Shown here one piece after another: positions 17,121-51,661 of a stretch of DNA of 64,000 bases; the first letter of the stretch is position 1, and each line of letters starts with the position of its first letter. The notes under the pieces were generated by a model, which was not told the DNA's origin, searched no databases, and saw nothing but the letters and a program-made list of their open reading frames with translations. Location of the stretch: NCBI GenBank assembly GCA_944372195.1, contig CALVYK010000001.1, positions 47,644 to 111,643 on the forward strand, in the 5' to 3' direction. Source of the stretch: an uncultured Bacilli bacterium (lineage in GTDB: Bacteria > Bacillota_I > Bacilli_A > RF39 > UBA660). A program made the position numbers and the translations under genes.

Positions 17121-17139
17121 ATATTTAATATTTGTTTGA

Positions 17140-17325
17140 AAGAGTATATATATTGATTAAATAGAGAGCTGGTGTTGGGTGAAAATCAGTTAAGAAATAT
17201 ATAGAAAGACATCAAACTATAAAATAATCGGTTAATCCCGTTAAAGATTTAAGAGCATAGAATTCTATGAAATAAGGTGGCACCGCGATATTATTCGTCC
17301 TTATATTTATAGGATTTTTTTAATT
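17140..17325 (+). promoter_or_regulatory. T-box riboswitch leader (Asp specifier GAC)
   Basis: Stem-I AGAGA; specifier context AAAGACA (GAC 17208-10); T-box sequence AAGGTGGCACCGCG at 17272-87; U-tract 17316-23. Confidence 0.75.
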
Positions 17326-24956: not shown

Positions 24957-27794
24957 ATGAAAAAAATCACTAACAAATTTATAAATAATACTATATATGC
25001 GCAAAAAGGGTTTACCCTAATAGAATTATTAGGCGTAATAATAATACTAGCAATAATAGCTTTAATAACATATCCAATAGTAGATAAATCAATTCAAAAA
25101 AGTAGAGAAAGTGCTTTGGAAAGAACAATCGAAAACATAGAAAAATCAGCCTATAATTATAGTGTTGAATATGATTTAGGTTATCCAAGAGAACAACAAA
25201 TATTAGAATTAAAAGAATTGGCTAACAAAGGATTTATAAGTGATAAAGAACATATCAATCCAGTAACCAATAATGAATTGGAGGGATGTGTGTTATATAG
25301 ATGGAATGAGGCAACTAGTCAATATTATTTTAAATATGCTGAACCATGCGTAAGAACAGAAATCGCACCAACAATGACATTAGTTTATGATAAAGAAAAT
25401 ATAAATGAAAATGACTGGCTAAATAAAAATATAATGGTAAATATAAATGGGACAGGCACAAAATATTATTATTGTATAGGAAATACAGAATGTGAGCCAA
25501 ACATAGAAGAAAATAAAACAAATGGAACAAAAATAATAATAAATGAAGGAACAAATGTATTGTGTGCCAAAGCAGAAAATGCATATGGCGAAAGTAAAGT
25601 AGTATGTACAGAGGAATTAAATTTAGATAAGACAGCGCCAAATATAGAAGGAATAGGGGATAAAACAGTTCAAAGGAATACGAATGTAGATTTAATAACA
25701 GGAGTAACATATAACGATGCATTATCAGGAATATCAGGCGAATTAATAATCGAGCCAACAATTGTAGATACATCAGTAACTGGAACAAAAGTAGTAAAAT
25801 ATAAAATAACAGATAAAGCAGGAAATACAAAAGAAGCAACAAGAAATATCATAGTGGATGCCCCAGCGCCAACAATAACATACAATTTAGTTGATAGCAG
25901 TTCTGTAAATAGTAATGGCTGGGCAAAGAGTAATTTCTTTGTAAGAGCAATAATCACAGATAATAGCGGAAGTGGAATCAATATTGCCAAAAGTTGTTCA
26001 AGTAATAGTTCAAGTGAATGTACGCCAAGCGCAAGCTTTACATCAATAACAAAAGACTTCTATATTCAAACTGAAGGAAATAATAGAATATGTATCGAAG
26101 TAACAGATAATAATAATAAAACATCAAAAGTATGTAGTAGTACCTACAAACTAGATAAGACATTACCAAATATAGCTGGAGTAGCTGATAAGACAGTACA
26201 AAGAAATACAACAGTAGACTTGAAAGCAGGAGTAACATATAGTGATGCATTATCAGGCATATCAGGAGATTTGATAATAGAACCTTCAAGTATAAGTACA
26301 TCAGTAACAGGAACAAAGACAGTAAAATATAAAGTAACAGATAAAGCGGGAAATACAAGAGAAGTTACAAGAAATATTATTGTCGATGCAGCCGCACCAA
26401 CAATAACATATAAATTAGTAGATAGTAGTTCAATAAATAGTAATGGCTGGGCAAAGAGTAATTTCTTTGTAAGGGCAACGATTACAGATAATAGTGGAAG
26501 TGGAATCAAGACTGCAAAAAGTTGTTCAAGTAATAGTTCGAGTGAATGTACGCCAAGTGCAACATTTACCGGAACAACCAAAGACTTCTATATAGAAGTA
26601 GAAGGAAATAATAGGTTATGTATCGAAGTAACCGATAATAATAATAAAACTTCAAAGCTTTGTAGTGATACCTATAAACTAGATAAGACAGCACCAACAG
26701 CCGGAACTGCAACATTTACAGGTACATTAGGAAGTAATAGTTGGTATACAAGTAATGTAACAGTAAATAAAGTAAATGGAAGCGATAGTTTATCAGGACA
26801 TTCAAGTACAACAAGTAATATAAGCAGTATAACATCAAATACAAGTGGAACAAAAGTAACAATAACAACAACAGATTTAGCCGGAAATAGTTCAACTAGA
26901 AATTATACAATAAAAGTTGATAAAAATAGTCCAACGATAACAGCAAAAAGTGGAACAGTAAGTATCACAGAGGGTGATAGCAATCCAACAAGTAATTACT
27001 TTACAGTAAGTTATGGAATAAGTGGCGGAAGTTTAAGTTGTAGTCCAACTAATACAAGTGGTTTGACATATGGAACAAGAACAGTTACATGTACAGCAAC
27101 TGGAGGTAATGGCAAAAAAGTTACTGCTACAAAACAAATTGAAGTCAATTACGGAGATATAAATTTATCATTTAAATACGTTGGCTCAAAAGCAACTCCA
27201 CAAACTCTTCCAGGAAAAGGAAATGGATACTATGTTCAAAATGTAAGCTGTGAAAATGGAACAGCAAAATGGAGTAATGATTTATGGTCTTTAACTAATG
27301 TTAGTGTTGAAAATGGTAAAATGATGTCATGCGTATTAACATTAGGCGATACTGCTACATATGATGATACAATTGATCAAACTTATTCAAATTTAAAACC
27401 TGAAAATATAGCTTCAGGAGTTCAAGTCGGTGATATTCTCGGAACTGTTGAAACACAAAAAACTTTAATTGCAATCATATATATAAATGGTTCAAAAACA
27501 TACGGCACTTTTTACAATGGTTCTTATTATGTGGCATCTAATAATATTGGACAATGGGGTGGTGCAGTTAGCAATCCAACCGGAAGAACATTAGTTGCTA
27601 CATCATTTATTTCTATGTCAGATTGTGGATTTAGAATTAATGGAGTTCAATATGTTGGCCTTTTTGGATTTGGTAATTTTACTGTAACTAGTGGCAAAAT
27701 AAACAATGTTATATTACAAAATGTTTCTGGTGTTACCAATTCTTTAGGCAATGGTGAAAATGGAACAATTTATATTTATGGGGAAGTACGCTAG
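24957..27794 (+). CDS. giant type-IV-pilin/pseudopilin-like modular protein with tandem Ig-like repeats
   Basis: Class III signal KGFTLIELLGVIIILAIIA; two 528-bp tandem repeats 25623-26150 and 26151-26678; C-terminal cassette. Confidence 0.75.
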   Translation: MKKITNKFINNTIYAQKGFTLIELLGVIIILAIIALITYPIVDKSIQKSRESALERTIENIEKSAYNYSVEYDLGYPREQQILELKELANKGFISDKEHINPVTNNELEGCVLYRWNEATSQYYFKYAEPCVRTEIAPTMTLVYDKENINENDWLNKNIMVNINGTGTKYYYCIGNTECEPNIEENKTNGTKIIINEGTNVLCAKAENAYGESKVVCTEELNLDKTAPNIEGIGDKTVQRNTNVDLITGVTYNDALSGISGELIIEPTIVDTSVTGTKVVKYKITDKAGNTKEATRNIIVDAPAPTITYNLVDSSSVNSNGWAKSNFFVRAIITDNSGSGINIAKSCSSNSSSECTPSASFTSITKDFYIQTEGNNRICIEVTDNNNKTSKVCSSTYKLDKTLPNIAGVADKTVQRNTTVDLKAGVTYSDALSGISGDLIIEPSSISTSVTGTKTVKYKVTDKAGNTREVTRNIIVDAAAPTITYKLVDSSSINSNGWAKSNFFVRATITDNSGSGIKTAKSCSSNSSSECTPSATFTGTTKDFYIEVEGNNRLCIEVTDNNNKTSKLCSDTYKLDKTAPTAGTATFTGTLGSNSWYTSNVTVNKVNGSDSLSGHSSTTSNISSITSNTSGTKVTITTTDLAGNSSTRNYTIKVDKNSPTITAKSGTVSITEGDSNPTSNYFTVSYGISGGSLSCSPTNTSGLTYGTRTVTCTATGGNGKKVTATKQIEVNYGDINLSFKYVGSKATPQTLPGKGNGYYVQNVSCENGTAKWSNDLWSLTNVSVENGKMMSCVLTLGDTATYDDTIDQTYSNLKPENIASGVQVGDILGTVETQKTLIAIIYINGSKTYGTFYNGSYYVASNNIGQWGGAVSNPTGRTLVATSFISMSDCGFRINGVQYVGLFGFGNFTVTSGKINNVILQNVSGVTNSLGNGENGTIYIYGEVR

Positions 27795-28795: not shown

Positions 28796-29314
28796 ATGGC
28801 AAGAGTTAAAGGTGGAACTATTAGTCGTGCAAGACATAAAAAAGTAATGAAACAAGCTAAAGGTTACTTTGGTAGTAAACATAGATTATATCGTACAGCT
28901 AATGAACAAGTAATGCATTCTGGTAAATATGCTTACCGTGATAGAAAACAAAAGAAAAGGGATTTCCGTAAATTATGGATTACAAGAATTAATGCAGCTT
29001 GTAGACAAAATGATATTAGTTATTCTAAATTTATCAATGGTTTAGCTAAGGCAGAAATTGATATTAATCGTAAAATGTTAAGTGAAATAGCTATCGATAA
29101 TCCAGCTGCATTTACAGAATTAGTTAATACTGCTAAAAATGCTTTAGAAGGCAAAGTAGAAAAAACTACTAAAGCTGTAAAAAAAGAAACTAAAGAAGTT
29201 AAAAACGATTTATCTAGTAAGACAGTTGCTGAATTAAGAGAATTAGCTAAAGAAAAAAAAGTTGAGGGATATTCAACAATGAAAAAAGCTGAATTATTAG
29301 AAGCTTTAAAATAA
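28796..29314 (+). CDS. rplT: 50S ribosomal protein L20 with an about 55-aa C-terminal extension
   Basis: L20 core MARVKGG...; tail ...[30 protein letters not shown]. Confidence 0.88.
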
Positions 29315-29386
29315 TTGTTAATTAATTTTAACAATTTTTTTATTGTCTTATTACAATATTTATTATATAATTGTAATGGTGATACT

Positions 29387-30100
29387 ATGAAAATAATAAA
29401 GTGGCCAATAATTTATTTTGTATTTCAATTTGCTTTAATTTTTTTATTAGCTTATACCTATATTTCATCTGGTAATGATGTTAATTTATTTAATGAATAT
29501 TTAACTAGTAAACAAATTTATTTAGCGCTTATTTTGGCTATTATATTTATACCATTGTTAATAAAAGATTATAAAAAAGTTAATTTTGATAAAAAGAATA
29601 AAATTAATTATTTGCAATTAATTTTAATTGGAATAATTTTAAGTTTAATTTATAATGTTTTTGCTTACTATTTTAATTTTTTATTAAAAACTTCATTATT
29701 TGATAATAACAGCAATTTAATTGTTACTTTGATTTCAACGGGTTTAATAGGACCTATTATTGAAGAGTTGATGTTTAGAGGCATAATTTATACTGAATTA
29801 AAAAATAAATTTTCAAATATGAAATCTATATTAATAACAACTGCCTTTTTTGCGCTAATTCATATTAATATTATTCAGATTTTATATGCTTTTGCATTAG
29901 GTTTTATATTGATATATGTATATGAGAAATATAAAAATATTAAAGCTCCAATTATATTACATATGGCAAGTAATATAACAACCACTTTATTTTTACCTAT
30001 TTTAATTCAAAATAATTTAATAATAAATTATAGTGTATTTTTAATTTGTTTAATTTTATTAATAATTATAAAGAAATACACTAAAATATTTAAGATGTGA
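29387..30100 (+). CDS. CPBP (CAAX) family intramembrane metalloprotease
   Basis: Motifs EELMFRG and FALIHI; the first 24 codons of the ORF-track frame lie within the likely promoter region (TATAAT at 29365-70). Confidence 0.65.
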   Translation: MKIIKWPIIYFVFQFALIFLLAYTYISSGNDVNLFNEYLTSKQIYLALILAIIFIPLLIKDYKKVNFDKKNKINYLQLILIGIILSLIYNVFAYYFNFLLKTSLFDNNSNLIVTLISTGLIGPIIEELMFRGIIYTELKNKFSNMKSILITTAFFALIHINIIQILYAFALGFILIYVYEKYKNIKAPIILHMASNITTTLFLPILIQNNLIINYSVFLICLILLIIIKKYTKIFKM

Positions 30101-30122
30101 TATAATTGTTGTAGGTGAGTTT

Positions 30123-30620
30123 ATGAAGAATTTATATATAGATTTTGATGGAGTAATAATGGATACAATAAGTGTTACTTATGATATGTTAGATAGATTA
30201 GAAGTTGATAGAAAAGATTCAGATAAAATGAAAGAATTTTTTTCAAATTTAAATTGGAAACAATTACTTACTTTGACACCTATTATTAACGATGCATTTA
30301 ATTGTTTAAAAAAGATATTTGCTTCTAATAAGTTTAACGTTGCAATACTTACGCATGTTAATTCATTAGATGAAGCAGTAGCTAAGATAAATTATATTAG
30401 AAAATATTTTAAAGATGTAACAATTATTCCTGTTCCAAGAGAAATATCAAAAACAAAAATATGTTTAAGTAAAGATGCTATTTTAATTGATGATTATTCT
30501 GGTAATTTAAAAGAATGGGCAGCAGAAGGTGGAATTGGAGTTCAATTTTCAAGAGATTTAACTAAAGATAAAGGATTTCCTGTTATCGATAAATTAGATA
30601 AAGTAATAGATATGTTTTAG
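30123..30620 (+). CDS. HAD-family 5'(3')-deoxyribonucleotidase-like protein
   Basis: DFDGV motif at the N-terminus. Confidence 0.6.
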   Translation: MKNLYIDFDGVIMDTISVTYDMLDRLEVDRKDSDKMKEFFSNLNWKQLLTLTPIINDAFNCLKKIFASNKFNVAILTHVNSLDEAVAKINYIRKYFKDVTIIPVPREISKTKICLSKDAILIDDYSGNLKEWAAEGGIGVQFSRDLTKDKGFPVIDKLDKVIDMF

Positions 30621-30632
30621 GAGGAGTTATTT

Positions 30633-32225
30633 ATGGAATTATTTATATTATCTTTATTAAGTATGTTTTTATATGTATGTTTAGATTTAAAAAAATCTTT
30701 TCATATGTTACAACAAAATTGGTATAACGATGGAAATAGATATTTAAAATGGATTAACAACAACAGTAGATTTGTATTTTTATGGTTTGATTACTTATAT
30801 GTGTTTATTGTATTATTAGGGGTGTTTATAAATAATAATATTTTAAGTATTATTGTAACAATTTATTATTTGATTATATCTATTATTTTATATAATCGAT
30901 ATAAACACGAGCAAGTAAAAAAACCTCTTGCTTTTACTAGTAGAATTAAAAGAATGTGTGTTACTATTTTAATTATTTATAGTATACCAATTGTAACAAT
31001 TCTATTAACGTTTTGTTCGCAAAATGTATATTTATATTATTTTATAATAGGAAGTTTAATTTATTTTAATTATTATATAGTTTATTTAGCTAATATAATA
31101 AATAAACCAGTTGAAAAATTTGTATATTTATATTATAAAACTAAAGCAATTAAAAAATTAAAATCATTATCTCATATGAAAGTTGTAGCTGTAACAGGAA
31201 GTTATGGAAAAACTAGTACTAAAAATATTATAAGTGATATTTTAAATGTTAGATATATGGCTTTTCCAACACCTAAAAACTTTAATACTAACTATGGATT
31301 AATCAGAACAATTAATGAATATATTGATAAATATAATGATTATTTTATAGCTGAATTAGGAGCATTTAGAAGAGGAGATATTAGATCACGTGCTAGTATT
31401 GTTAAACCTAAGTATGGTGTATTAACTAAAATTGGAACTGCTCATTTAGATACTTTTGGTTCTATTGAAAATACAACAAAAACTAAATTTGAATTAATCG
31501 AATATTTACCTAAAGATGGAGTAGGATTTCTAAATATTGATGATGAGTTACAGGTAAATTATAAATTAAAAAACAATATTAGAATAGTTTGGTATGGATT
31601 ATCTGATAAAGCTGATGTATATGCTACAGATATTAAATATTCAAATAAAGGAATGAGTTTTAAAGTTCATTTTAAAGGTGATAAAAAATCTTATGAGTTT
31701 ACGACAAAATTATTAGGCGAGGCTAATGTTTATAATATTTTAGCTGGTATTGCCGTTGGTAAAGAATTAGGATTAAATATTGAAGAATTACAAAAAGGTG
31801 TATTACAAATTAAAACAATTGAACATCGATTAGAAATGAAAAAATATGGTAATATCACTTATATAGATGATGCTTATAATTCTAATCCAGTTGGTTCTAA
31901 AATGGCTTTAGATGTTTTAAAACTAATGCCAGGCAAAAAAATCATTATTACTCCAGGTATGGTTGAAATGGGCGATAAACAATACGAAGTAAATTATAAT
32001 TTTGGTAAATTTATAGCTGATAGTGTTGATTTAGCAATTTTAGTAGGAGCTCATCAAACTAAACCAATTCAAGATGGTATTAAAGATTCTAAGTTTGATG
32101 ATGATAAATTAGTTATTGTTAATGATGTAAAAGAAGCTATTAACATTGCTCAAAATTATTATAAAGGTAAAGAAGTTTATATTTTATTAGAAAATGATTT
32201 GCCAGATTTATTTAATGAAAAATAA
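30633..32225 (+). CDS. MurF-like Mur ligase with an N-terminal polytopic membrane domain
   Basis: About 170 aa with 5-6 TM helices replace the usual UDP-binding domain; P-loop VAVTGSYGKTSTK; MurF signature DDAYNSNP. Confidence 0.7.
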   Translation: MELFILSLLSMFLYVCLDLKKSFHMLQQNWYNDGNRYLKWINNNSRFVFLWFDYLYVFIVLLGVFINNNILSIIVTIYYLIISIILYNRYKHEQVKKPLAFTSRIKRMCVTILIIYSIPIVTILLTFCSQNVYLYYFIIGSLIYFNYYIVYLANIINKPVEKFVYLYYKTKAIKKLKSLSHMKVVAVTGSYGKTSTKNIISDILNVRYMAFPTPKNFNTNYGLIRTINEYIDKYNDYFIAELGAFRRGDIRSRASIVKPKYGVLTKIGTAHLDTFGSIENTTKTKFELIEYLPKDGVGFLNIDDELQVNYKLKNNIRIVWYGLSDKADVYATDIKYSNKGMSFKVHFKGDKKSYEFTTKLLGEANVYNILAGIAVGKELGLNIEELQKGVLQIKTIEHRLEMKKYGNITYIDDAYNSNPVGSKMALDVLKLMPGKKIIITPGMVEMGDKQYEVNYNFGKFIADSVDLAILVGAHQTKPIQDGIKDSKFDDDKLVIVNDVKEAINIAQNYYKGKEVYILLENDLPDLFNEK

Positions 32226-32251
32226 GACATATTAAGATTTATGTCTTTTTT
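32224..32251 (+). terminator. intrinsic terminator
   Basis: AAGACATA ttaagat TATGTCTT TTTT. Confidence 0.7.
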
Positions 32252-32301
32252 GTTTACGATTTTGTTTACGATTTGACAATTTTAAAAATTAATATTATAA
32301 T
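32251..32301 (+). promoter_or_regulatory. Fic gene promoter with tandem 11-bp direct repeat TGTTTACGATT x2
   Basis: Repeats at 32251-61 and 32264-74; TTGACA (32273-8), 17-nt spacer, TATAAT (32296-301). Confidence 0.55.
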
Positions 32302-32328
32302 AATCACTCAAAAAAGGGGGGAACCTTT

Positions 32329-33132
32329 ATGGAAAATAGTTTACGTGATTTAATAGTTTTAATATTTGAAGGTTATCTAAAAAGAAAGGGTGAACATCGA
32401 TTATATAAAAAAGACAGTTTAATTCCTGAACAAATAATTTCTATGTATTATCAATCTAATAGTGATCCACAATTTAATACTATTTATTATAATTTTAAAA
32501 GAAATTATTTATATAATGAAAGCCGAATTGATGAAACAATTACAGAAGAGGAAAGAAAAGGATTATCTAAGGTATATGATTATATAAGAGATTATGATTT
32601 TAGTAAGCAAAAATTTGATATATTTGTTGAAGCAATGAAAATACATATGCTTTTATATTCAGAATGTCCACATCCTGAATTTGGTGGTCAATTAAGAAAT
32701 GATAGTGTTATTTTAAATAAAGAAATGATTGAAGTACCACCAGCAGATGAAGCTAAAAAATATTTTCAATCATTTATAGGCAAAAAACTACCAGAAGTTG
32801 ATTTTAAAAATTCTGTTTCCATTTTTGATTACATTAATTCATGTATTTATATTACTACTGAATTAATTAAGGCTCAACCATTTACTGATGGTAATAAACG
32901 TACATTTAGAGCATTATTAAATTTAATGTTTAAGCAATATAATTTACCACCCGTTTATGTTAAAACAAAAGAAAGAACTGAATATAAAGATGCTTTAATG
33001 AAAGCCATGAAGAAAAAAGATTATACTTCATTAAATCAATTTTATTATTATAAGATATGTGATTCAATTTATGATTTAGATATTTCTGAAGAATTAAAAC
33101 CAGAACAACCAAAAAATTTAGTAAAAAAATAA
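32329..33132 (+). CDS. Fic/DOC family protein
   Basis: Fic-like motif PFTDGNKRTFRAL. Confidence 0.65.
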   Translation: MENSLRDLIVLIFEGYLKRKGEHRLYKKDSLIPEQIISMYYQSNSDPQFNTIYYNFKRNYLYNESRIDETITEEERKGLSKVYDYIRDYDFSKQKFDIFVEAMKIHMLLYSECPHPEFGGQLRNDSVILNKEMIEVPPADEAKKYFQSFIGKKLPEVDFKNSVSIFDYINSCIYITTELIKAQPFTDGNKRTFRALLNLMFKQYNLPPVYVKTKERTEYKDALMKAMKKKDYTSLNQFYYYKICDSIYDLDISEELKPEQPKNLVKK

Positions 33133-33155
33133 AAACTCTATTTAAGTAGAGTTTT
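33132..33155. terminator. bidirectional terminator
   Basis: AAAACTCTA tttaag TAGAGTTTT. Confidence 0.7.
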
Positions 33156-34544
33156 TAAGTGCTTTTTAACTTCATCAATATCACAAAATTCAATTATTTT
33201 ATCTTTTAATATTTGATAGTTTTCACTACCTTTACCAATTATTAAAACTATATCATCTTTTCGAGCAATATTAATTGCTTTTTTTATTGCTTCACTTCTA
33301 TCTAAAATAATTTCATAGTTTTTATAATCTTTAACCTTACTAACTAAATCATTGGCTATATCCATAGGATCCTCATTTCTTGGATCTTGACTAGTTACAA
33401 TAGCATAATCACAATTAGTTATAACATTATATCCTTTACTAGGTCTTTTAGATCTATCTCTTTCTCCTGGTTCAGAAAAAACAACAATTAATTTATTAAA
33501 TACTAAACTATTAATAAATTCCAATAATTTACTTATACCATTTGGAGTATGTGCATAATCAACAATAACTTTGAAATTTTGCCCCATATCAATATTTTCT
33601 AATCGGCCACTGATTTTAATATTTTTAACTTTAGCTATTAATTCATTTAAGTCGTACCCTAAACTAACTAAAGCAAGTAGGGCAGCACTTAAATTGTAAA
33701 CATTAAACATAGCTATTAAAGGACTTACTATTTTATATTCTTTATTTTGATAAACAATTGTAAACGTTGTTTTGTCAATATCTAGTTTAACATCTTTAAA
33801 GTATAAATCATTGTCACTACCTTTACCATATGTATATATTTTTTTACAATGTTTAGCTACTTCATTAAAATGTTCATCATCTTTATTTAAAATACAAGGA
33901 CCTATCGTATTATCAAATAATTTACATTTACAGTTAATATAATTTTCTAAAGTTTTATGAGTATTTAAATGTTCTTTTGTAATGTTTGTTATAATACTAC
34001 AATTAAATTTAATTCCATCAATTCTATTATAATAGAGAGCTTCACTAGATACTTCCATACTAACATTTTTAATACCATTTTTAACCATATCATAAAATAA
34101 TGGTATTGTTTTGTCTAAGCCTGGGGTCGTATTAAGTGTTTTTTCTTTATAATTATTATAGTTAATTCCATTTGTTCCTATATAAGCACAATTAGATAAT
34201 AGTTCATAAATAATTGTTGCAACAGTTGTTTTACCATCAGTGCCGGTTATTCCTATCATATTTAATTTTTTAGTAGGGTAATCATAAAATTTATTTATAA
34301 TTTCAACATAAGTTTCATTCGGATTATCTACTTTAATAATAGGAACTTTTTTATTTCCAATATCTTTTTTAACTATAACTGCGCTAGCTCCTTTATTAAT
34401 AGCATCATCAATAAATAGGTGTCTATCCATTGTTTTAGTATCAGTACAAATAAATAAATCACCTTTTTTAATATTTGCTGAACTTGTTTTAATACCAGTT
34501 ATATCTATATCATAATCACAATTTATTAATTCTTTTAATTTCAT
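33138..34544 (-). CDS. second MurE-type Mur ligase (UDP-MurNAc-L-Ala-D-Glu : amino acid ligase paralog)
   Basis: P-loop IGITGTDGKTTV; complete three-domain MurE fold; motif DPRNEDP rather than the canonical DNPR. Confidence 0.75.
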   Translation of the reverse strand: MKLKELINCDYDIDITGIKTSSANIKKGDLFICTDTKTMDRHLFIDDAINKGASAVIVKKDIGNKKVPIIKVDNPNETYVEIINKFYDYPTKKLNMIGITGTDGKTTVATIIYELLSNCAYIGTNGINYNNYKEKTLNTTPGLDKTIPLFYDMVKNGIKNVSMEVSSEALYYNRIDGIKFNCSIITNITKEHLNTHKTLENYINCKCKLFDNTIGPCILNKDDEHFNEVAKHCKKIYTYGKGSDNDLYFKDVKLDIDKTTFTIVYQNKEYKIVSPLIAMFNVYNLSAALLALVSLGYDLNELIAKVKNIKISGRLENIDMGQNFKVIVDYAHTPNGISKLLEFINSLVFNKLIVVFSEPGERDRSKRPSKGYNVITNCDYAIVTSQDPRNEDPMDIANDLVSKVKDYKNYEIILDRSEAIKKAINIARKDDIVLIIGKGSENYQILKDKIIEFCDIDEVKKHLKTLLK

Positions 34545-36262
34545 TTTTTCACCTTCTTAATTATTATTATAGCACATACACTAGCAAGAAAAATAATTAT
34601 ATAATTATTGTTTATATTTGTTTGTGCTTCTTCCACTATAAAATTTTCGTATTCATTAATTAAATTATTTATGTTTTCTACATTTCCATCAAAATTAATA
34701 AAATAATTTTTAACTTCATTATTAATACTATCATAATTTTCATTATCTTTATATTTATTATAAACATCAATTAAGTTATTTATTTCATCCGGTATTTCAT
34801 ATAAAGATGGGGCAATATCAGGTGTTTTATAATAATTAGTTGCATTTTCATAAGCGCTAGCTATTTGATATAAAGTTGTTTCGGTTTGACTCATTATTTC
34901 TAATCCATATGGTAAATCATTATAATATCCCATAGGAACACTAATAGCAGGATAACCAATTAATGGAGCTGTACTAGAACTTGCTGTATATATCTGTTCA
35001 TATTTAGCTTCTTCATTAGTAAATAGTTTAGTTTTTAAAGTAGGGTAGATAATAGCATCATAATTTTTAAATCTATTATTTGCAGTTTTAATATTATTAT
35101 TACGAATACTTATATAATTTTTATAACTATCAGTTAGTTTATAATCGTTGTTACAATAATATCCATTATATCCTTCAATATTTTGTGTGTAGCCACCATT
35201 TTTAATTAAATCATCTAAACTTTTTATTTTACTTGATGTTCCTTTTAAATATTCGTTAAAGTTATAACACATTGTAGTTGCATCAAATTTATAAGTTAAG
35301 GAAAAACTATCTATATAAGTTATTTCAGCTCCTAATTCTTTTAATTTATCAATTGCCTCATTCATCATATCATAAATAAATTGATCTGTTTTACCATAAG
35401 TAATACTAGTATTATTAGTATTAGGATTCATAAATCCAGATACAACAGCAATTTTAATACCATTTAAATCTTTATTTAAACAATCCTCATATTTAATATC
35501 TTTATCATCTAAAATATCTAAAATAACTGCATTATCACTTACATATTTAGTTATAACACCAACAACGTCTCTTGTTTCTTCAAATTTAATAACACCACTA
35601 GTGTTTATTAGATCATAAGATGGTCTTAAGCCAACAACACCATTGGCACTACTAGGAACTCTAATTGAACTACCTGTATCAGTTCCTAGTGCATAGACAG
35701 CTAGATTAGCAGCTACTGAAACTGCACTCCCACCTGATGAACCATAAGCTGAATAATTTGTATTAAAGGCATTATAAGTATAACCAAAACTGCTATGAGT
35801 GTATGATGCATTAAAAGCAAATTCATCCATATTAGCTTTGCCGATTATAATTGCACCATTATCGATTAATTTTTGAACGGCATAACTATTTTCATAAGGG
35901 TAAGAATCTAATAAAGCTTTAGTACCATTAGTTGTTGGAAGTCCTTTAACATCAATATTATCTTTAACGATAACAGGTAGTCCAAATATTAAGCTTCTTC
36001 TTCCTTTTTCTTGATATTCTATATCTAATTTTTTAGCTTCTTCAATTGCATTTTCATTAATTGTAATTAAAGCATTATATTGCTCATTATATTCATTGAT
36101 TCGATCTAAATATAATTTGACTATTTTTTCATAAGTTAAATAACCTTGATCAACATATTCTTGTATTTCATATATATTTAATTCATTAATATCGATTATT
36201 GCTTGTTCTAATGCATTAATTTTAAAAGGAATTAATAATAAAAGTAATAAAAGCTTTTTCAT
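34541..36262 (-). CDS. secreted or membrane-anchored amidase-signature (GatA-like) enzyme
   Basis: Signal peptide, C-terminal TM helix, AS motif GGSSGGSAVSVAA...GTDTGSSIRVPSS; stop codon overlaps the MurE-like start (ATGA). Confidence 0.75.
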   Translation of the reverse strand: MKKLLLLLLLIPFKINALEQAIIDINELNIYEIQEYVDQGYLTYEKIVKLYLDRINEYNEQYNALITINENAIEEAKKLDIEYQEKGRRSLIFGLPVIVKDNIDVKGLPTTNGTKALLDSYPYENSYAVQKLIDNGAIIIGKANMDEFAFNASYTHSSFGYTYNAFNTNYSAYGSSGGSAVSVAANLAVYALGTDTGSSIRVPSSANGVVGLRPSYDLINTSGVIKFEETRDVVGVITKYVSDNAVILDILDDKDIKYEDCLNKDLNGIKIAVVSGFMNPNTNNTSITYGKTDQFIYDMMNEAIDKLKELGAEITYIDSFSLTYKFDATTMCYNFNEYLKGTSSKIKSLDDLIKNGGYTQNIEGYNGYYCNNDYKLTDSYKNYISIRNNNIKTANNRFKNYDAIIYPTLKTKLFTNEEAKYEQIYTASSSTAPLIGYPAISVPMGYYNDLPYGLEIMSQTETTLYQIASAYENATNYYKTPDIAPSLYEIPDEINNLIDVYNKYKDNENYDSINNEVKNYFINFDGNVENINNLINEYENFIVEEAQTNINNNYIIIFLASVCAIIIIKKVKK

Positions 36263-36329
36263 TTACAATCACCACACTTATTTTACCACACTTTTTCAAT
36301 AATTGAATAGAATAAAATAGGTGATTATA

Positions 36330-37634
36330 ATGAATATTAAAGATGATTCAAGAAAAGTAAATAAAGGTGACATATTTGTTGCTTTAAAAAAAGTTAATGA
36401 TGGTCATAAGTATGTATTGGATGCTATTAAAAATGGGGCTAGTAAAGTAGTAGTTAGTGATGGTGATTATGAAGTTGAAACGCTAAAAGTAAAAGATACT
36501 CATGAATATTTAGTAAATTACTTATATGATAATTATTATGATAAGATAAAAAATTTAAAATTAATTGGGATGACTGGAACTAATGGTAAAACGACAACCT
36601 GTTTTTTGATATATCAAGCTTTAAATAAATTGGGTATAAAGTGTGCATATATTGGAACAATTGGCTTCTATTTAGATAAAAAAATTAAACCATTAAATAA
36701 TACTACTCCAGATATATTAGAAATATATGAATTATTGTTAGAATGTGTAGATAATGATTATGAATATGTAGTAATGGAATGTAGTAGTCATGCACTAGAT
36801 ATGCATAGATTAGATAAATTAGAATTTAAATATGGGATTTTTTCTAACTTAACTCAAGATCATTTGGATTATCATAAGACTTTAGAAAATTACATAAAAG
36901 CTAAACAAAAACTATTTGATAAAGTAACTATTAAAACATTTGTTAATAGTGATGATAAATATAAAGATTACTTTATTAGAGATAACACAATAACATATGG
37001 TTTAAATGGAGATTATAAATTAAGTGATATAAATCTTAAGGAAAGAACTTTTAAAGTTAATAATATTACTTATAAAACTAATTTAATCGGGGAACATAAT
37101 ATATATAATTTATTAGTTGTAATAGCCTTATTAAGTGAATTAAAATTAGATACCAAAGTAATAGAAGAACTAACATGTCCTCCTGGTAGAATGGATATTG
37201 TGAATTATAAAGACAATATGATTGTAATAGATTACGCTCATACACCAGATGCGGTTAGTAAAATATTAGATTCTATTAAAGAATTAAATTTTAATAAAAT
37301 TATAACGATAATTGGGTGTGGTGGGGATCGAGATAGTTTTAAAAGACCAATTATGAGCAAAATTGCTTGTGATAATAGTGATCATGTCATTTTTACAAAT
37401 GATAATCCAAGATATGAAAATCCTAATAATATTATTAGTGATATGTTACATAATCTTGACAAATTTAATTATGAAATTATCTTAAATCGTGAAAAAGCAA
37501 TCATAAAGGGTATACAAAGGTTAGAAAAAAATGATATACTATTAGTGCTTGGAAAAGGACATGAAAATTATCAAATTATAAATGGAGTAAAACATCATTT
37601 TGATGATAAAGAAATTGTACTAAAAAATATATAA
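36330..37634 (+). CDS. murE: UDP-MurNAc-L-Ala-D-Glu--2,6-diaminopimelate ligase
   Basis: IGMTGTNGKTTT and the meso-DAP signature DNPRYENP; start moved to the ATG preceded by TAGGTGA. Confidence 0.85.
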   Translation: MNIKDDSRKVNKGDIFVALKKVNDGHKYVLDAIKNGASKVVVSDGDYEVETLKVKDTHEYLVNYLYDNYYDKIKNLKLIGMTGTNGKTTTCFLIYQALNKLGIKCAYIGTIGFYLDKKIKPLNNTTPDILEIYELLLECVDNDYEYVVMECSSHALDMHRLDKLEFKYGIFSNLTQDHLDYHKTLENYIKAKQKLFDKVTIKTFVNSDDKYKDYFIRDNTITYGLNGDYKLSDINLKERTFKVNNITYKTNLIGEHNIYNLLVVIALLSELKLDTKVIEELTCPPGRMDIVNYKDNMIVIDYAHTPDAVSKILDSIKELNFNKIITIIGCGGDRDSFKRPIMSKIACDNSDHVIFTNDNPRYENPNNIISDMLHNLDKFNYEIILNREKAIIKGIQRLEKNDILLVLGKGHENYQIINGVKHHFDDKEIVLKNI

Positions 37635-38716: not shown

Positions 38717-40402
38717 ATGAAAAATATAACCAAAAATTTACAAAAAGATGCTTTTACCTTAGCAGAATTGATAGGTGTTGTAATAATATTAGCAATAATA
38801 GCTTTATTAGCATTTCCGCCTATATTGAATGCAATTCGACAAACAAAAGGGAAAATAAGTGATGCAAGTAAAGAAATATTATATAATGCGACAGGGCTTT
38901 ATGTTAGTGATAACCTTGACTATTATCCTAAGTATAATGGGAATACTTATTGTGTAACTATAAATGAGTTGACTAAAGGTGAATATTTACCTACTAAAGT
39001 ATATGATTCAGTAACTGGTAATGAAATCTCACAAGATAGTATGATAGAAGTAAATGTTGATAATGGTATTTATAATTACAATTTAAATAATGAATGTGAA
39101 GAATATTACAAATATGGCCCATTGACAAAAGTTTTATTAGGACAATATAATGAATCAAATACAACTGGATTAGTAAAAGATAGCTCAAACGAAAATTTAT
39201 ATTATTATACTGGGACAAATGAACAAGTAGCTAATAATTATTTATGGTATGGCGGCCATCAATGGCGAGTATTAGAGTTTAATATAGATGAAAATACTTT
39301 AACTTTAATAACACAACAGCCATTAACAGCAATCCAACCCGCTAGTTCTGCTTGGGAAACCAAAGAAGCATATGAATCAAGCTATATCAATACATGGTTA
39401 AATGATTACTTTTGGAATAGTTTAGATAGTAGCATACAAAATAATATATTAGATAGTATATTTAATGTTGGAATATATACTGATGTCGATGAGATAATGG
39501 CAATTAATAAAGTAGGACTATTAGATGAGGAACAATATAAAAGAGCAGGAAATACAGATTCATTTTTAGATATAAAAGATCATTTTTGGTTAGGTAATAG
39601 ATATGTTTCGTCTTACGTTCGCTGCGTCTACAACGATGGTCGCCTCTTCCGCACTTCCGTTTCGTCTGCGTTTGGCGTGCGTGCAGTTATAAAAATTTCT
39701 GATATAACCATCACTGAAGGGGATGGTACTCTTACAAGCAATTATCAAGTAGCAAATAAAGCAACAGATACTAATAATGTACAAGTAGGAGAATATATCA
39801 ATGTGCCATATAGTGGAAGTGACAGTGCTTGTGGAAGTGATAATATGTGCACATTTAGAGTAGTAAGTAAAGATAGTGATAGTATTAAAGTAGTACTAAA
39901 TGGATTACTTCCAACAGCAAGTGCATATGGAAGTTCAACAACAATAAGTACGAGTCATACAATATATACCCCACTGAATACATTTGTTGAAGGAATAAGT
40001 GACACATATCGATATACCGGAAATAAAATATTCTATATAGGAGATTATCCATCTGGTTCAAATTATAAAGATGTACAAAATGAAATATTGGGAGCAAGTG
40101 TGGGATTACCAACAGTAGGAGAAATGTTTAGTGGCAATGACATTGATTTAAGTACATCAAGTACCAAAACATTTGTTGATATAAATACAATCGAAAATCC
40201 AACTGTATCAAATTACTATTGGACAATGAATGGATATAGTTCGTCTCTCGTTCGCAGCGTCCACAGCAATGGCCACCTCAGCGACAATAGTCCTTCGGTT
40301 GCGTTCGGCGTGCGTGCAGTTATATATTTGAAGTCAGGGACTTCAGCCATAACCTTCACAGGGGGAGATGGAAAAGCTCAAAAGCCTTATACTTTAGATT
40401 AA
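38717..40402 (+). CDS. pilin-like (prepilin N-terminal) secreted protein with two GC-rich SVRCV/GVRAVI (DUF1566-like) repeats, inserted in the dcw cluster
   Basis: N-terminus AFTLAELIGVVIILAIIALLAFPP; own promoter TTGCAA...TGTATAAT; repeats at 39601-39682 and 40241-40323. Confidence 0.7.
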   Translation: MKNITKNLQKDAFTLAELIGVVIILAIIALLAFPPILNAIRQTKGKISDASKEILYNATGLYVSDNLDYYPKYNGNTYCVTINELTKGEYLPTKVYDSVTGNEISQDSMIEVNVDNGIYNYNLNNECEEYYKYGPLTKVLLGQYNESNTTGLVKDSSNENLYYYTGTNEQVANNYLWYGGHQWRVLEFNIDENTLTLITQQPLTAIQPASSAWETKEAYESSYINTWLNDYFWNSLDSSIQNNILDSIFNVGIYTDVDEIMAINKVGLLDEEQYKRAGNTDSFLDIKDHFWLGNRYVSSYVRCVYNDGRLFRTSVSSAFGVRAVIKISDITITEGDGTLTSNYQVANKATDTNNVQVGEYINVPYSGSDSACGSDNMCTFRVVSKDSDSIKVVLNGLLPTASAYGSSTTISTSHTIYTPLNTFVEGISDTYRYTGNKIFYIGDYPSGSNYKDVQNEILGASVGLPTVGEMFSGNDIDLSTSSTKTFVDINTIENPTVSNYYWTMNGYSSSLVRSVHSNGHLSDNSPSVAFGVRAVIYLKSGTSAITFTGGDGKAQKPYTLD

Positions 40403-45681: not shown

Positions 45682-46470
45682 ATGTATGCTGCAGTTAAAA
45701 AACAATTCTTAATAGCTATTTTAGAGCCAATATTAGATAAAAAAATTGAAGATTTAGAACTGTTAAATCCAAATTTAGTTCAAGATTATTTTAGATTAAG
45801 AGGGCAAAGATTAGATTTGTTAGTAAAAACAAAAGATGAGGTAATTAATGTTGAATTGAATACTAATTATAGTGAAGAAATAAAAATAAGAAATTTACAT
45901 TACATTTTTAAGTTAGCAAGCCTTAATACAGAAAGAGGGAATAAATACAAAGTAGGTTATTCGATAATTCAAGTAAATCTAAATTTTTATAATAGTAAAT
46001 ACGAAAAAAGTATCTACACATTATATGATAAAATAAATAAAATAGAATTAACCGATTATATAAAAATATATAATGTAGGTATAGACAAATACATAAAAAA
46101 CTATTATAATAATGATAAGAAGTTTACTAAAGGTGAAGAAGCATTAATCATGCTAGATTTGGGTAAACAAGGTTTAGAAGAATTATCAGAAAAGAGTGAT
46201 ATAGTGAATAATTTTAAAGAAGAAGTAATAAAAGCTAACAATGATGAGTTTATAGTAGATTGGATAAGTCGTGAAGAGGAGCAAAAGCAATATGAAGAAG
46301 TAATGTATGAAAAAGGACTTAATCAAGGATTATCTGAAGGAAAACAAGAAGGAATTGAACAGACTAAAATTGATGTGGCAAAAGAAATGTTAGAATTAAA
46401 TATGGATTTAGAAACAATAAGTAAAGTAACTAAATTAGCTAAAGAACAAATTGAAAGTTTAAAAAATTAA
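45682..46470 (+). CDS. Rpn/YhgA-like PD-(D/E)XK recombination-promoting nuclease / putative transposase family protein
   Basis: RLDLLVK...INVELN core and the charged C-terminal repeat region typical of Rpn-family proteins. Confidence 0.55.
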   Translation: MYAAVKKQFLIAILEPILDKKIEDLELLNPNLVQDYFRLRGQRLDLLVKTKDEVINVELNTNYSEEIKIRNLHYIFKLASLNTERGNKYKVGYSIIQVNLNFYNSKYEKSIYTLYDKINKIELTDYIKIYNVGIDKYIKNYYNNDKKFTKGEEALIMLDLGKQGLEELSEKSDIVNNFKEEVIKANNDEFIVDWISREEEQKQYEEVMYEKGLNQGLSEGKQEGIEQTKIDVAKEMLELNMDLETISKVTKLAKEQIESLKN

Positions 46471-46577: not shown

Positions 46578-48614
46578 GTGTTTAAAAGAATTAAGCAAGA
46601 AGGTTTTAAAGATTGTGGTCCAAGTAGTTTACTTACTATAATTAAACATTACAAAGGTTATATTGACATAAATGATTTAAAAGAAATGTGTAAAACAGAT
46701 AAATCTGGAACAACTGCCTATCATTTAATTGAAGCTAGTAAAAAACTAGGATTTGAAAGTTATGGTATTAGATGTAATTTAAACGATTTAAAAAAAGAAA
46801 ACGTAATACTTCCTTGTATTGCTCATGTAATTATAAATAACTCCTACAATCATTATGTTGTAATTGAAAAAATAGATTTTAAGAAAAAAAAGCTATTAAT
46901 TAACGATCCAATTGGAAAACGTAAATTTTGCTCGTATGAAGAATTTGATAAAATATTTAATAATATTTTGATTTATTTATACCCTATAAAAAAAATAATA
47001 AATATCCCTAATAATTCATATATAAAATTTTTTCAAGAAATAATAAAATCCTCAACAAATCAATTGGTTCAAGTTATTGTTATATCTATTTTTATTACAA
47101 TATTTTCTATTATCTCATCATTTTATATGCAATACATGATCGATAATATTATGTTTTCTAAGCAAAAAATTATACTTATTTTTATAATCTTTTTAATTGT
47201 TTATTTACTTAAAATCATATCAGATTTTTTTAGAAATAAAATTTTGATTATAATTAATCAAAAAGTTGATTTTAATCTTACTTTTAATACTTTTAAACAA
47301 ATTATTAACCTTCCTTATCGTTACTATAAAAATAATACAACTGGTGAAATAATATCAAAAATAAATGATCTAGAAGCTGTAAGAGAAGTGATTTCTAAAG
47401 TAGCTTTGAGTTTATTTATTGATTTGCCTTTAACAATTTTATCTTTAATAATTATGTATATGTTAAGTGATACTTTATTTTTCATAAGTTTAATTATTAT
47501 GCTTTTATATTTATTTATAATTATTATATTTCAAAATAAATTTAATAATTTAATAGATGAAGCAACACTAGATAAAGCATCTGTTACATCATACATGGTT
47601 GAATCTATTAATGGCTATGAAACAATAAAAGGATGTAATATGGAAGGTAAAATTATTCATAATTTTGAAGATAAATATGCTACTTATTCTAATAAAATAA
47701 ATGAATTAGATAGTTGTTACAATTATCAATATTTGCTAAAAGAATTAATAAATAATATAGGTTTTATAATTATTATATTAGTTGGAATATTTTTAGTAAT
47801 GGATAATAAAATAACACTTGGTTCATTATTGTCATTTAATTCTTTACTTATTTATTTTTTAAGTCCTATTAGAAACATTATTGATTTAGATAATAATTTA
47901 AGACAAGCTAAAATATCTATTAAAAAAATATTATATTTATATTATAAAAAAAATAATTTTCAATTTGAACAAGTTATAGGAGATATAGAATTTAAAAATT
48001 TAACTTATAGTTTTGATGACGTAAATAATGTTTTATCTAATATTAATTTAAAAATTAAAAATAAAAGTAAAGTTATGGTATTAGGAAGTAGTGGTAGTGG
48101 GAAAAGTACTTTATTTAAAATTTTAAAACAAAATTATGAAATTAAAAGAGATAAAGTATATATTAATGGTGTTGATATTAACGATTACAAATTAAATAAT
48201 ATTGTTTATGTATCACAAAATGAAATATTATTTTCTGATACAATTGAAAATAATATTGGTAACGATATTTATAAAGTATCTAAAATATGTTTGGTTGATG
48301 AAATAGTAAAAAAAACACAATTGGGTTATAAAACTTTGATTGAAGAAAATGGTTTTAATTTATCGGGTGGTGAGAAACAAAGAATTATTTTAAGTAGGGC
48401 TTTAGCTAATCCTTTTGATATTTTAATAATAGACGAAGGATTAAGTCAGGTTGATACAAATATGGAAAGAGTAATTATAAAAAATATTTTAAAAGAATAT
48501 CAAGATAAAACAATAATTTTTATATCACATAGATTAGATAATATTGATTTATTTAATCAAGTTATAAAAATAGAGAAAGGAAAAATAATTGATGATTTAT
48601 CCAAAAATATATAA
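46578..48614 (+). CDS. peptidase C39 bacteriocin-processing/secretion ABC transporter (GTG start)
   Basis: C39 motif KDCGPSSLLTI; six TM helices; Walker A GSSGSGKST; signature LSGGEKQR. Confidence 0.88.
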   Translation: MFKRIKQEGFKDCGPSSLLTIIKHYKGYIDINDLKEMCKTDKSGTTAYHLIEASKKLGFESYGIRCNLNDLKKENVILPCIAHVIINNSYNHYVVIEKIDFKKKKLLINDPIGKRKFCSYEEFDKIFNNILIYLYPIKKIINIPNNSYIKFFQEIIKSSTNQLVQVIVISIFITIFSIISSFYMQYMIDNIMFSKQKIILIFIIFLIVYLLKIISDFFRNKILIIINQKVDFNLTFNTFKQIINLPYRYYKNNTTGEIISKINDLEAVREVISKVALSLFIDLPLTILSLIIMYMLSDTLFFISLIIMLLYLFIIIIFQNKFNNLIDEATLDKASVTSYMVESINGYETIKGCNMEGKIIHNFEDKYATYSNKINELDSCYNYQYLLKELINNIGFIIIILVGIFLVMDNKITLGSLLSFNSLLIYFLSPIRNIIDLDNNLRQAKISIKKILYLYYKKNNFQFEQVIGDIEFKNLTYSFDDVNNVLSNINLKIKNKSKVMVLGSSGSGKSTLFKILKQNYEIKRDKVYINGVDINDYKLNNIVYVSQNEILFSDTIENNIGNDIYKVSKICLVDEIVKKTQLGYKTLIEENGFNLSGGEKQRIILSRALANPFDILIIDEGLSQVDTNMERVIIKNILKEYQDKTIIFISHRLDNIDLFNQVIKIEKGKIIDDLSKNI

Positions 48615-50263: not shown

Positions 50264-50332
50264 AATTGTATGAAATATTACAATTTTTTTATTTTTTATT
50301 TAAAAAATGATATAATGTAATAGGTGATAAAA

Positions 50333-51657: not shown

Positions 51658-51661
<4 letters not shown>
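50333..51661 (+). CDS. murD: UDP-N-acetylmuramoylalanine--D-glutamate ligase
   Basis: GITGSNGKTTTTTL; start set after -10 GATATAAT (50309-16) and RBS TAGGTGA. Confidence 0.88.

Follow-up and report, generated by a model that had tools for sequence, protein, structure and literature searches.

A membrane-embedded MurF-family ligase and a separate amidase–MurE2 operon beside murE and mraY in an uncultured Bacilli bacterium

The window examined here, meaning the whole 64,000 nt stretch of DNA that was analysed, comes from contig CALVYK010000001.1 of an uncultured Bacilli bacterium and has a G+C content of about 24 %. Beside housekeeping-type murE and mraY genes it encodes a MurF-family ligase with a predicted membrane domain, referred to as TM-MurF (transmembrane MurF), and a second MurE-type ligase, MurE2, whose gene is joined to that of an amidase-signature enzyme. 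Profile, motif and homologue comparisons showed TM-MurF to be a conserved, predicted membrane-integral protein that retains an apparently intact MurF-like catalytic core and is paralogous to the MurF of its host. Across carrier genomes the TM-MurF gene is linked to genes of D-Ala-D-Ala metabolism and of the cell wall, while amidase–MurE2 is a separate conserved operon found repeatedly near TM-MurF in related Bacilli. The interpretation tentatively favoured here is that the region contains two independent conserved peptidoglycan-precursor modules beside murE1–mraY, with TM-MurF completing a lipid-linked precursor and amidase–MurE2 forming the second module. An earlier, sequence-only reading of the window had recognised two Mur ligases in addition to canonical murF, murE and murD, and this was confirmed, with identities of 28 % between TM-MurF and the canonical MurF of the same organism and of 38 % between MurE2 and the housekeeping-type MurE1. 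That reading had treated the genes as one accessory cluster; they are instead two independent modules that lie side by side in this lineage, and the usual partners of TM-MurF are absent from the window. Every open reading frame (ORF) named in it was intact at its coordinates. The principal features are listed below.

30633–32225, plus strand: TM-MurF, membrane-embedded MurF-family ligase, 530 aa, intact ORF
30633–31100, plus strand: predicted transmembrane domain of TM-MurF, five helices, aa 1–156, in place of the UDP-binding N-terminal domain
31191–32156, plus strand: Mur-ligase central (aa 187–375) and C-terminal (aa 398–508) domains of TM-MurF
33138–34544, minus strand: MurE2, 468 aa, three Mur domains (NF001126)
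34541–36262, minus strand: amidase-signature enzyme, 573 aa (PF01425), first gene of the amidase–MurE2 operon
36330–37634, plus strand: MurE1, housekeeping-type (NF001126, 479.5 bits), which opens the run murE-mraY-...-murG-murB-ftsQAZ

Two Pfam families were matched by TM-MurF, PF08245 (Mur_ligase_M, aa 187–375, 144.6 bits) and PF02875 (Mur_ligase_C, aa 398–508, 43.1 bits), both above their gathering scores, which places the protein in the Mur ligase superfamily; no Pfam family covered aa 1–180. The top NCBIfam model was murF (TIGR01143), which was matched at model positions 70–392 only and with 221.7 bits, below the whole-protein cut-off of 288.6 for MurF proper. Scores for other Mur-like families were far below their cut-offs (MurT model NF052464, 35.2 bits against 800; cyanophycin synthetase, 42.8 bits against 850), and none of the NCBIfam PgsB/CapB models matched at E≤0.001. 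Relatives of solved structure found by sequence were all MurF, with alignments that begin at chain residue 75–120. The domain that binds uridine diphosphate N-acetylmuramic acid (UDP-MurNAc) at the N-terminus of MurF is therefore missing, and residues 1–178 are predicted to form transmembrane or linker helices. The central and C-terminal domains, the P-loop, the His/Glu/Lys catalytic motifs and the DDxYNxNP motif are shared with canonical MurF (TIGR01143; PDB 1GG4, 4QF5 and 4CVK), whereas the five-helix membrane domain takes the place of the UDP-MurNAc-binding domain.

Hydropathy analysis placed transmembrane segments at approximately residues 2–20, 48–66, 69–88, 109–127 and 134–156, the fifth being weaker (19-residue hydropathy mean of about 1.0–1.2), and hydropathy together with charge predicted an N-terminus outside the cell. 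The prediction of a MurF-type ligase with a DDAYNSNP signature and five or six helices in place of its N-terminal domain thus held for architecture and motif, while the count of six helices did not. An AlphaFold2 model (predicted local distance difference test score 84.5) was all-helical to residue 178, with a Mur-ligase fold beyond. The top ten Foldseek matches were MurF structures, and cyanophycin synthetase was also among the fold matches. The transmembrane domain itself had no solved structural relative and no homologue that could be recognised.

Within the family, the catalytic core and two loops of the membrane domain were well conserved. The P-loop TGSYGKTS is invariant in the family, DDAYNSNP (MurF-type DDxYNxNP) is invariant among close members (57–82 % identical), and D413, N416 and N418 are invariant in members down to 34 % identity. 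Members that are 34–59 % identical keep all Mur-ligase catalytic motifs, and their invariant positions include Q27, Y31, T102, R104, R107, P159 and E161. The two basic loops (aa 21–47, HMLQQNWYN..RY.KW; aa 89–108, KKPL..T.R..R) showed 46 % and 43 % conservation, close to that of the two catalytic domains (48 % and 46 %), compared with 32 % for the whole transmembrane domain. With family means of 4.7 and 7.7 Lys and Arg residues, these loops are predicted to be cytoplasmic, on the same side of the membrane as the ligase.

Hundreds of full-length homologues, encoded on many independent contigs, aligned over 100 % of TM-MurF, and the best 120 of those listed were 57–95 % identical. A profile of the transmembrane domain alone matched 1103 cluster representatives. 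All full-length proteins among the 150 matches listed were 515–559 aa and the others were fragments, indicating that this domain is invariably joined to the ligase. An assembly or gene-fusion artefact was ruled out by the full-length homologues and the domain profile. A scan of one genome per species with the full-length family alignment identified carriers in at least 583 species of the GTDB taxonomy, in Bacilli and Clostridia. They include uncultured low-G+C Bacilli, such as Clostridium sp. CAG:1000 and metagenome-assembled genomes labelled 'Tenericutes', as well as members of the Erysipelotrichaceae, Lachnospiraceae, Oscillospiraceae and Peptococcaceae, and the cultured Eubacterium yurii ATCC 43715, Aquibacillus kalidii, Pseudalkalibacillus and Sporosalibacterium. 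Members are labelled MurF or 'Mur ligase middle domain protein' in the source databases, and a full-text literature search found no description of a transmembrane MurF.

A tree of the ligase part was reconstructed by distance-based neighbour joining (328 columns, 100 bootstraps), with canonical MurF sampled from E. coli, Streptomyces, Fusobacterium, Bacillaceae, Clostridia and this organism. TM-MurF proteins formed a monophyletic clade (100/100), outside the canonical MurF clade (99/100) and sister to it. This agrees with the expectation that TM-MurF would not group with housekeeping MurF. TM-MurF is 79 % identical to its counterpart in L007, the most closely related locus found, in which MurE1, MurE2 and the amidase are 75–80 % identical; such similar conservation indicates that TM-MurF is under purifying selection. 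In what are apparently the same relatives, the next tier of identity was about 82 % for TM-MurF and about 74 % for canonical MurF. Among the best 120 matches to canonical MurF, which reach only to 64 % identity, none lay on one long contig with a distant TM-MurF. The plasmids of PLSDB contained canonical MurF only, with no match covering at least 80 % of the TM-MurF query.

To examine gene neighbourhoods, ORFs were called and clustered in 79 loci that carry TM-MurF. The gene before TM-MurF encodes a cytoplasmic alpha/beta hydrolase of 245–260 aa in 67 of the 79 loci, and the gene after it a Ddl-family ligase of 390–410 aa in 62 of the 79 (for example L009:5709–6914, L058:11573–12766 and L059:11590–12804). 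This Ddl passes the Ddl subfamily cut-offs narrowly and carries a conserved Gly/Lys-rich insertion of about 15–20 residues in the omega loop, after an invariant Asp-Lys-Tyr (DKY), together with a conserved C-terminal extension (SF..NIL...GG.KG.K); by these sequence features it is a distinct subfamily of the Ddl family. The omega loop of Ddl closes over the second-substrate site. Two Bacillaceae loci, L058 and L059, share the hydrolase–TM-MurF–Ddl cassette and one further gene (L058:12927–13649 and L059:13104–13829), which in L059 encodes a VanX-like D-Ala-D-Ala dipeptidase (Peptidase_M15) and in L058 was assigned by clustering with the L059 gene; L059 also has a class B penicillin-binding protein (PBP; 14730–16808). 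These Bacillaceae loci are set among accessory genes, namely the VanX-like dipeptidase, the extra PBP and siderophore genes, and the M15 dipeptidase occurs in few of the 79 loci. The Bacilli locus L003 contains an extracytoplasmic function (ECF) sigma factor, a PBP5-type carboxypeptidase and a LiaF-like gene, and a murE1-type gene lies directly 3' of TM-MurF in L018 and L055. No GatD-like gene was seen in the annotated TM-MurF loci, nor was VanH, VanT, VanR or VanS.

The second module lies on the opposite strand. The amidase and murE2 genes overlap in an ATGA stop/start at 34541–34544, preceded by a GAAGGTG ribosome-binding site, so that the proposed translational coupling to a complete second MurE could be read directly. 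MurE2 matched all three Mur domains (PF01225, PF08245 and PF02875) and exceeded both MurE models (NF001126, 436.4 bits with a cut-off of 373; TIGR01085, 417 bits with a cut-off of 257), and it is accordingly assigned to the MurE family. Compared with MurE1, it has QDPR for DNPR, SSE for SSH and SEPGERD for GCGGDRD, with the catalytic residues kept. These motifs are conserved in four orthologues, all four of which have QDPR instead of the DNPR that is typical of meso-diaminopimelate (meso-DAP) ligases. The best relatives of known structure were the Lys-adding enzymes of Thermotoga maritima (L/D-Lys; 264 bits) and Staphylococcus aureus (L-Lys; 249 bits), which have the same three-domain architecture, and Asp occupies the second motif position both in QDPR and in the DDPR of T. 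maritima. MurE2 differs from both enzymes in QDPR, in SSE for SSH, in SEPGERD, in its best model, which is a DAP ligase, and in its coupling to an exported amidase. On these motifs, MurE2 probably adds a residue other than DAP.

The amidase belongs to the amidase-signature family by score (PF01425, 282.8 bits) and by a Lys-cisSer-Ser triad (K100/S175/S199) that is invariant in 12 homologues, and it falls below every equivalog cut-off. Its N-terminus is hydrophobic and signal-like (MKKLLLLLLLIPFKINA/LEQ), and it ends in a C-terminal transmembrane segment with a KKVKK tail; both features, the helix with its basic tail included, are conserved in homologues down to 54 % identity. The positive-inside rule places the catalytic domain outside the cell, and the claim that the enzyme is extracytoplasmic therefore stood. 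The fold family and the triad, with identical spacing, are shared with GatA and with the peptide amidase Pam of Stenotrophomonas, from which the enzyme differs in its signal peptide, about 90 extra residues, the C-terminal membrane anchor and its linkage to murE2 and division and cell-wall (dcw) genes. It is not GatA itself, as the score was 229 bits with a cut-off of 481, a signal peptide and anchor are predicted, and gatB and gatC are not adjacent. A model in which amidase and MurE2 form a MurT/GatD-like amidotransferase was rejected, since by its positive-inside topology the amidase has its enzymatic domain on the outer side of the membrane. The amidase–MurE2 pair recurs in L007, L088, L089 and L170, and no more than 5 kb separates it from TM-MurF in the window, L007, L088 and L089. 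In L089 murE2 converges on TM-MurF, and in L088 a full hydrolase–TM-MurF–Ddl cassette is 4 kb from the pair. In two further genomes the amidase gene stands beside ftsW-mraY-PBP, and in one other it is solitary. A metagenome scan with the amidase alignment returned only amidases of about 30 % identity, the search patterns being too generic.

Three known systems invite comparison with TM-MurF. The MurT subunit of MurT/GatD is, like TM-MurF, a Mur-ligase homologue without the N-terminal domain; the closest structural relative of MurT is MurF, and MurT works on a lipid-linked precursor at the membrane (PMC6113224). MurT, however, is soluble, needs the glutaminase GatD, carries a Cys4 zinc ribbon and a DUF1727 C-terminal domain, and amidates D-Glu, whereas TM-MurF is predicted to be membrane-integral and has no GatD adjacent. 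The second MurF found in van clusters (vanXmurFvanKWARS of Desulfitobacterium hafniense; PMC4229326) is, like TM-MurF, linked genetically with a ligase of the Ddl family and, in some genomes, with a dipeptidase of the VanX type. A membrane domain is not mentioned for van-cluster MurFs in PMC4229326 or PMC9689679, and the annotated TM-MurF loci differ in lacking VanH and VanRS, as does the window in lacking Ddl and VanX. The fusion of a Mur ligase to a polytopic membrane domain had been called unusual, but natural Mur chimeras include MurD–FtsW, in which the ligase is joined to a polytopic partner of the same pathway (PMC10214165). Those chimeras join a complete ligase to a known protein, whereas TM-MurF has one domain substituted by another, a membrane part for which no homologue could be recognised.

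In the favoured two-module reading, TM-MurF would be an active ligase that forms amide bonds at the expense of ATP and belongs to a distinct MurF-like subfamily, as its sequence motifs suggest, and would ligate D-Ala-D-Ala, or another D-Ala-D-X dipeptide, to a membrane-held MurNAc-tripeptide. The acceptor would most likely be the undecaprenyl-pyrophosphate-linked form, that is, lipid I or lipid II without the terminal dipeptide, and the route would be one of completion or repair, parallel to soluble MurF. Complexes of MurE and MurF with their ligands have the pyrophosphate of the substrate at the boundary between the N-terminal and middle domains, and MurT, which acts on lipid II, is without the N-terminal domain, which would clash with the membrane (PMC6113224). 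The transmembrane domain of TM-MurF is attached at this same boundary, exactly where lipid II would be expected to emerge from the bilayer, and its position there, with the MurT precedent, provides an architectural argument for a lipid-linked acceptor; the earlier suggestion of a membrane-associated, possibly lipid-linked, substrate is strengthened to that extent. The conserved basic loops, if cytoplasmic and beside the catalytic cleft, could hold the pyrophosphate. In most carriers the dipeptide would come from the dedicated ligase of the Ddl family and the cytoplasmic hydrolase would trim or edit the terminus, and the presence of these partners fits a module that trims and rebuilds the end of the peptide. 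In this lineage, where the partners are not adjacent, TM-MurF would draw on the general D-Ala-D-Ala pool. The second module would consist of an exported, membrane-tethered Ser-cisSer-Lys amidase, translationally coupled to MurE2. MurE2 may be an alternative position-3 ligase, and the amidase may cleave amides of wall or environmental muropeptides outside the cell, either editing products or releasing building blocks for salvage. Peptidoglycan pathways of m-DAP type that lack some steps have been predicted for the related orders RF39, RFN20 and ML615J-28, which may have to scavenge muropeptides (PMC10868615). A broader version can be drawn for the Firmicutes, in which TM-MurF, Ddl and hydrolase complete, repair or re-edit D-Ala-D-Ala on lipid I/II instead of on the nucleotide, and reduced-genome gut Bacilli add the exported amidase and MurE2 for scavenged or alternative building blocks; this is offered as a possibility, and a rather doubtful one.

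Several observations weigh against this interpretation. The preference for a lipid-linked over a UDP-linked acceptor derives from the architecture of the protein alone, and adjacency to Ddl and to murE–mraY suits an ordinary membrane-tethered MurF equally well. Neither the alpha/beta hydrolase nor the Ddl-family partner occurs anywhere in this window, and the TM-MurF module may therefore work differently here. The best NCBIfam model for MurE2 is a DAP ligase (NF001126, 436 bits, as against 317 for the Lys-ligase model), and the Arg of DNPR is kept. The nearest relatives of the amidase with solved structures are GatA and generic amidases, and a peptidoglycan-derived amide is a putative substrate. 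The literature searched contained no biochemical or genetic data on any TM-MurF member.

The simplest alternative is that TM-MurF adds D-Ala-D-Ala to soluble UDP-MurNAc-tripeptide in the ordinary way, with a transmembrane domain that tethers it near MraY and channels the pentapeptide precursor, and with loops that bind UDP; together with the adjacent Ddl it might be the housekeeping pair in many carriers. The motifs specific to MurF are retained, profile and fold comparisons both put TM-MurF closest to MurF, the Ddl-family gene is adjacent in 62 of the 79 loci in the manner of Firmicutes ddl-murF operons, and this Ddl keeps the Lys-Tyr seen in ligases that form dipeptides and scores above the subfamily cut-offs. 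A murE-type gene directly follows TM-MurF in L018 and L055, and murE1–mraY is nearby in the window. However, the same organism has a complete canonical MurF above the curated cut-off, TM-MurF proteins form an ancient group that is sister to canonical MurF as a whole and is not derived from the local one, and the entire UDP-binding domain has been lost. The partner Ddl is moreover a distinct subfamily (omega-loop insertion and C-terminal tail), and the Bacillaceae loci lie amid accessory genes and not in core cell-wall operons. A tethered but otherwise ordinary MurF is thus possible, though on the unlikely side. Some of the same partners would suit a module like those of vancomycin resistance, in which TM-MurF, as the dedicated adding enzyme, acts with the Ddl-like ligase and the hydrolase (and in some genomes the M15 dipeptidase) to reprogram the precursor or answer stress by installing a D-Ala-D-X terminus. 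Precedents exist for murF in or near van loci, in Desulfitobacterium (vanXmurFvanKWARS; PMC4229326) and Ktedonobacteria (PMC9689679), the omega loop of the partner Ddl is remodelled, the VanX-like M15 dipeptidase is two genes downstream in L058 and L059, the latter with a class B PBP, and L003 has its sigma factor, carboxypeptidase and LiaF-like gene. Against this, the annotated loci contain no VanH, VanT, VanR or VanS, the dipeptidase is limited to few of the 79 loci, the Tyr of the Ddl is typical of dipeptide and not depsipeptide ligases, and no TM-MurF member was found on PLSDB plasmids. None of the partners is present in this window, where no component of a van-type cluster (VanH/VanT, Van ligase, VanX, VanRS) was found between 28000 and 39000. 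Such a module is improbable.

A role outside peptidoglycan, with TM-MurF, an ATP-grasp ligase and a hydrolase making or turning over a peptide on another membrane acceptor (a lipid head group or a polymer), would resemble membrane-anchored PgsB/CapB, cyanophycin synthetase with its ATP-grasp and Mur-like domains, or MprF with an alpha/beta hydrolase. The combination of Mur-like ligase, ATP-grasp ligase and hydrolase recurs in non-peptidoglycan systems, TM-MurF scores below the MurF cut-off and is without the UDP-binding domain, cyanophycin synthetase is among its fold matches, and its five-helix domain has no recognisable relative. However, the murF model scored 222 bits against 43 for cyanophycin synthetase and 35 for MurT, no PgsB/CapB model matched, DDxYNxNP is invariant, and the linkage to murE, mraY, PBPs, DD-carboxypeptidase and D-Ala-D-Ala dipeptidase is repeated, all of which makes such a role quite improbable. 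The sequence-only reading had itself looked to B-type peptidoglycan, with the extra ligases building a non-canonical stem peptide as in Erysipelotrichia. Two extra Mur ligases are indeed present, the specificity pocket of MurE2 is altered and some TM-MurF carriers are labelled Erysipelotrichaceae. We know of no sequence marker for the B-type pathway (a ligase for the alpha-carboxyl of D-Glu, Gly or Ser at position 1, or a D-Glu cross-link), and nothing found in this analysis suggested such an alpha-carboxyl ligase. MurE1 carries DNPR, the motif of meso-DAP enzymes, the MurD is of the standard kind, TM-MurF occurs across Bacilli and Clostridia whatever their wall type, including Bacillaceae and Lachnospiraceae, and the related uncultured orders are predicted to be of m-DAP type (PMC10868615). 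The link to B-type peptidoglycan is thus unsupported, and this reading is highly improbable.

The family is large and uncharacterised, and it is found in Firmicutes; together with the amidase–MurE2 operon, it points to an unstudied membrane-level branch of precursor synthesis. In textbook accounts, MurF carries out the last soluble step in making the precursor of peptidoglycan. After MraY, to our knowledge, the peptide on the lipid carrier is altered in only two ways, amidation (by MurT/GatD) and the addition of branches. Vancomycin targets the D-Ala-D-Ala terminus, which also acts as donor in transpeptidation. A family in at least 583 species, most with their own Ddl-type ligase and hydrolase, suggests that D-Ala-D-Ala may be installed or repaired on lipid-linked intermediates. 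If so, there would be consequences for how cells tolerate D-cycloserine, glycopeptides and attack by carboxypeptidases, for MurF inhibitor design, and for our view of wall building by reduced-genome gut Bacilli with incomplete pathways. Were TM-MurF only a tethered MurF, it would show the N-terminal domain of MurF to be dispensable. Accessory murF genes in van clusters and MurD–FtsW chimeras are already known, and the interest of TM-MurF is mainly as a testable lead to lipid-level ligation.

The remaining features near these genes, and the other housekeeping Mur genes of the window, are as follows.

1–450, plus strand: 3' end of canonical murF (TIGR01143 model positions 268–417)
29315–30100, plus strand: Rce1-like CAAX protease
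30123–30620, plus strand: 165-aa ORF, 12 nt 5' of TM-MurF
32273–32301, plus strand: promoter-like TTGACA-17-TATAAT 5' of the Fic gene, 12/12 consensus match
32329–33132, plus strand: Fic/Doc-family gene (PF02661)
50324–51661: murD (TIGR01087, 404 bits)

Between 28 and 39 kb, the plus strand carries infC, rpmI, rplT, the CAAX protease gene, the 165-aa ORF, TM-MurF and the Fic gene. The 165-aa ORF had no Pfam or NCBIfam match; a HAD-like DFDGV motif was noted by eye, and orthologues occur in L007 (91 % identity) and L008 (78 %). It takes the slot held by the alpha/beta hydrolase in most TM-MurF relatives and, to judge from its motif, may represent non-orthologous replacement of one hydrolase by another. 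L007 likewise lacks the hydrolase and Ddl beside TM-MurF and has, as in the window, the 165-aa ORF before it and the Fic gene after it. The Fic-family gene that had been noted between the two ligases is present, but it is probably an insertion unrelated to the ligase system. It scored 30.2 bits with PF02661, just over the cut-off of 24, and its motif QPFTDGNKR has Gln in place of the catalytic His, a substitution conserved in the L007 orthologue; where the signature HxFx(D/E)GN(G/K)RxxR is expected, the window has QPFTDGNKRTFR and L007 has QPFNDGNKRTFR. Its own consensus promoter, the loss of the catalytic His and its restriction, among the loci searched, to this closest relative are the grounds for regarding it as unrelated. 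The promoter-like site is a perfect match, in a region where the total of such sites did not exceed the shuffled expectation. No intrinsic terminator-like sites were found in 29200–36500.

The start of murE1 is most likely the ATG at 36330, with AGGTGA just 5', and is followed on the plus strand by mraY, a pilin-like gene, murG, murB, ftsQ, ftsA and ftsZ. The whole canonical murF was taken from contigs whose Tgt protein is identical to that of the window; it encodes a three-domain protein of 413 aa (L004:3952–5193) that passes the TIGR01143 cut-off of 288.6 with 317.3 bits. The pilin-like gene between mraY and murG in the dcw cluster encodes a large DUF6273 protein (38717–40402) with a pilin-like N-terminal helix, as judged by eye. 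Another large protein (24957–27794) has a match to the N_methyl motif, a pilin-like N-terminus and Ig-like domains. Directly after ftsZ, a PD-(D/E)XK transposase-like gene (45682–46470) and a bacteriocin-type ABC exporter with a C39 peptidase domain (46578–48614) stand between the dcw genes and murD. No Rfam match was found near the ligase genes, the sole match in the window being a T-box leader (17128–17305, 115 bits) 5' of the aspartyl-tRNA synthetase gene aspS (17339–19072). A histidine kinase (8375–9541) is followed by two FtsX-domain permeases of 827 and 858 aa (11042–13525 and 14335–16911), and these genes may form a Bce-like module for sensing and detoxification of antimicrobial peptides.

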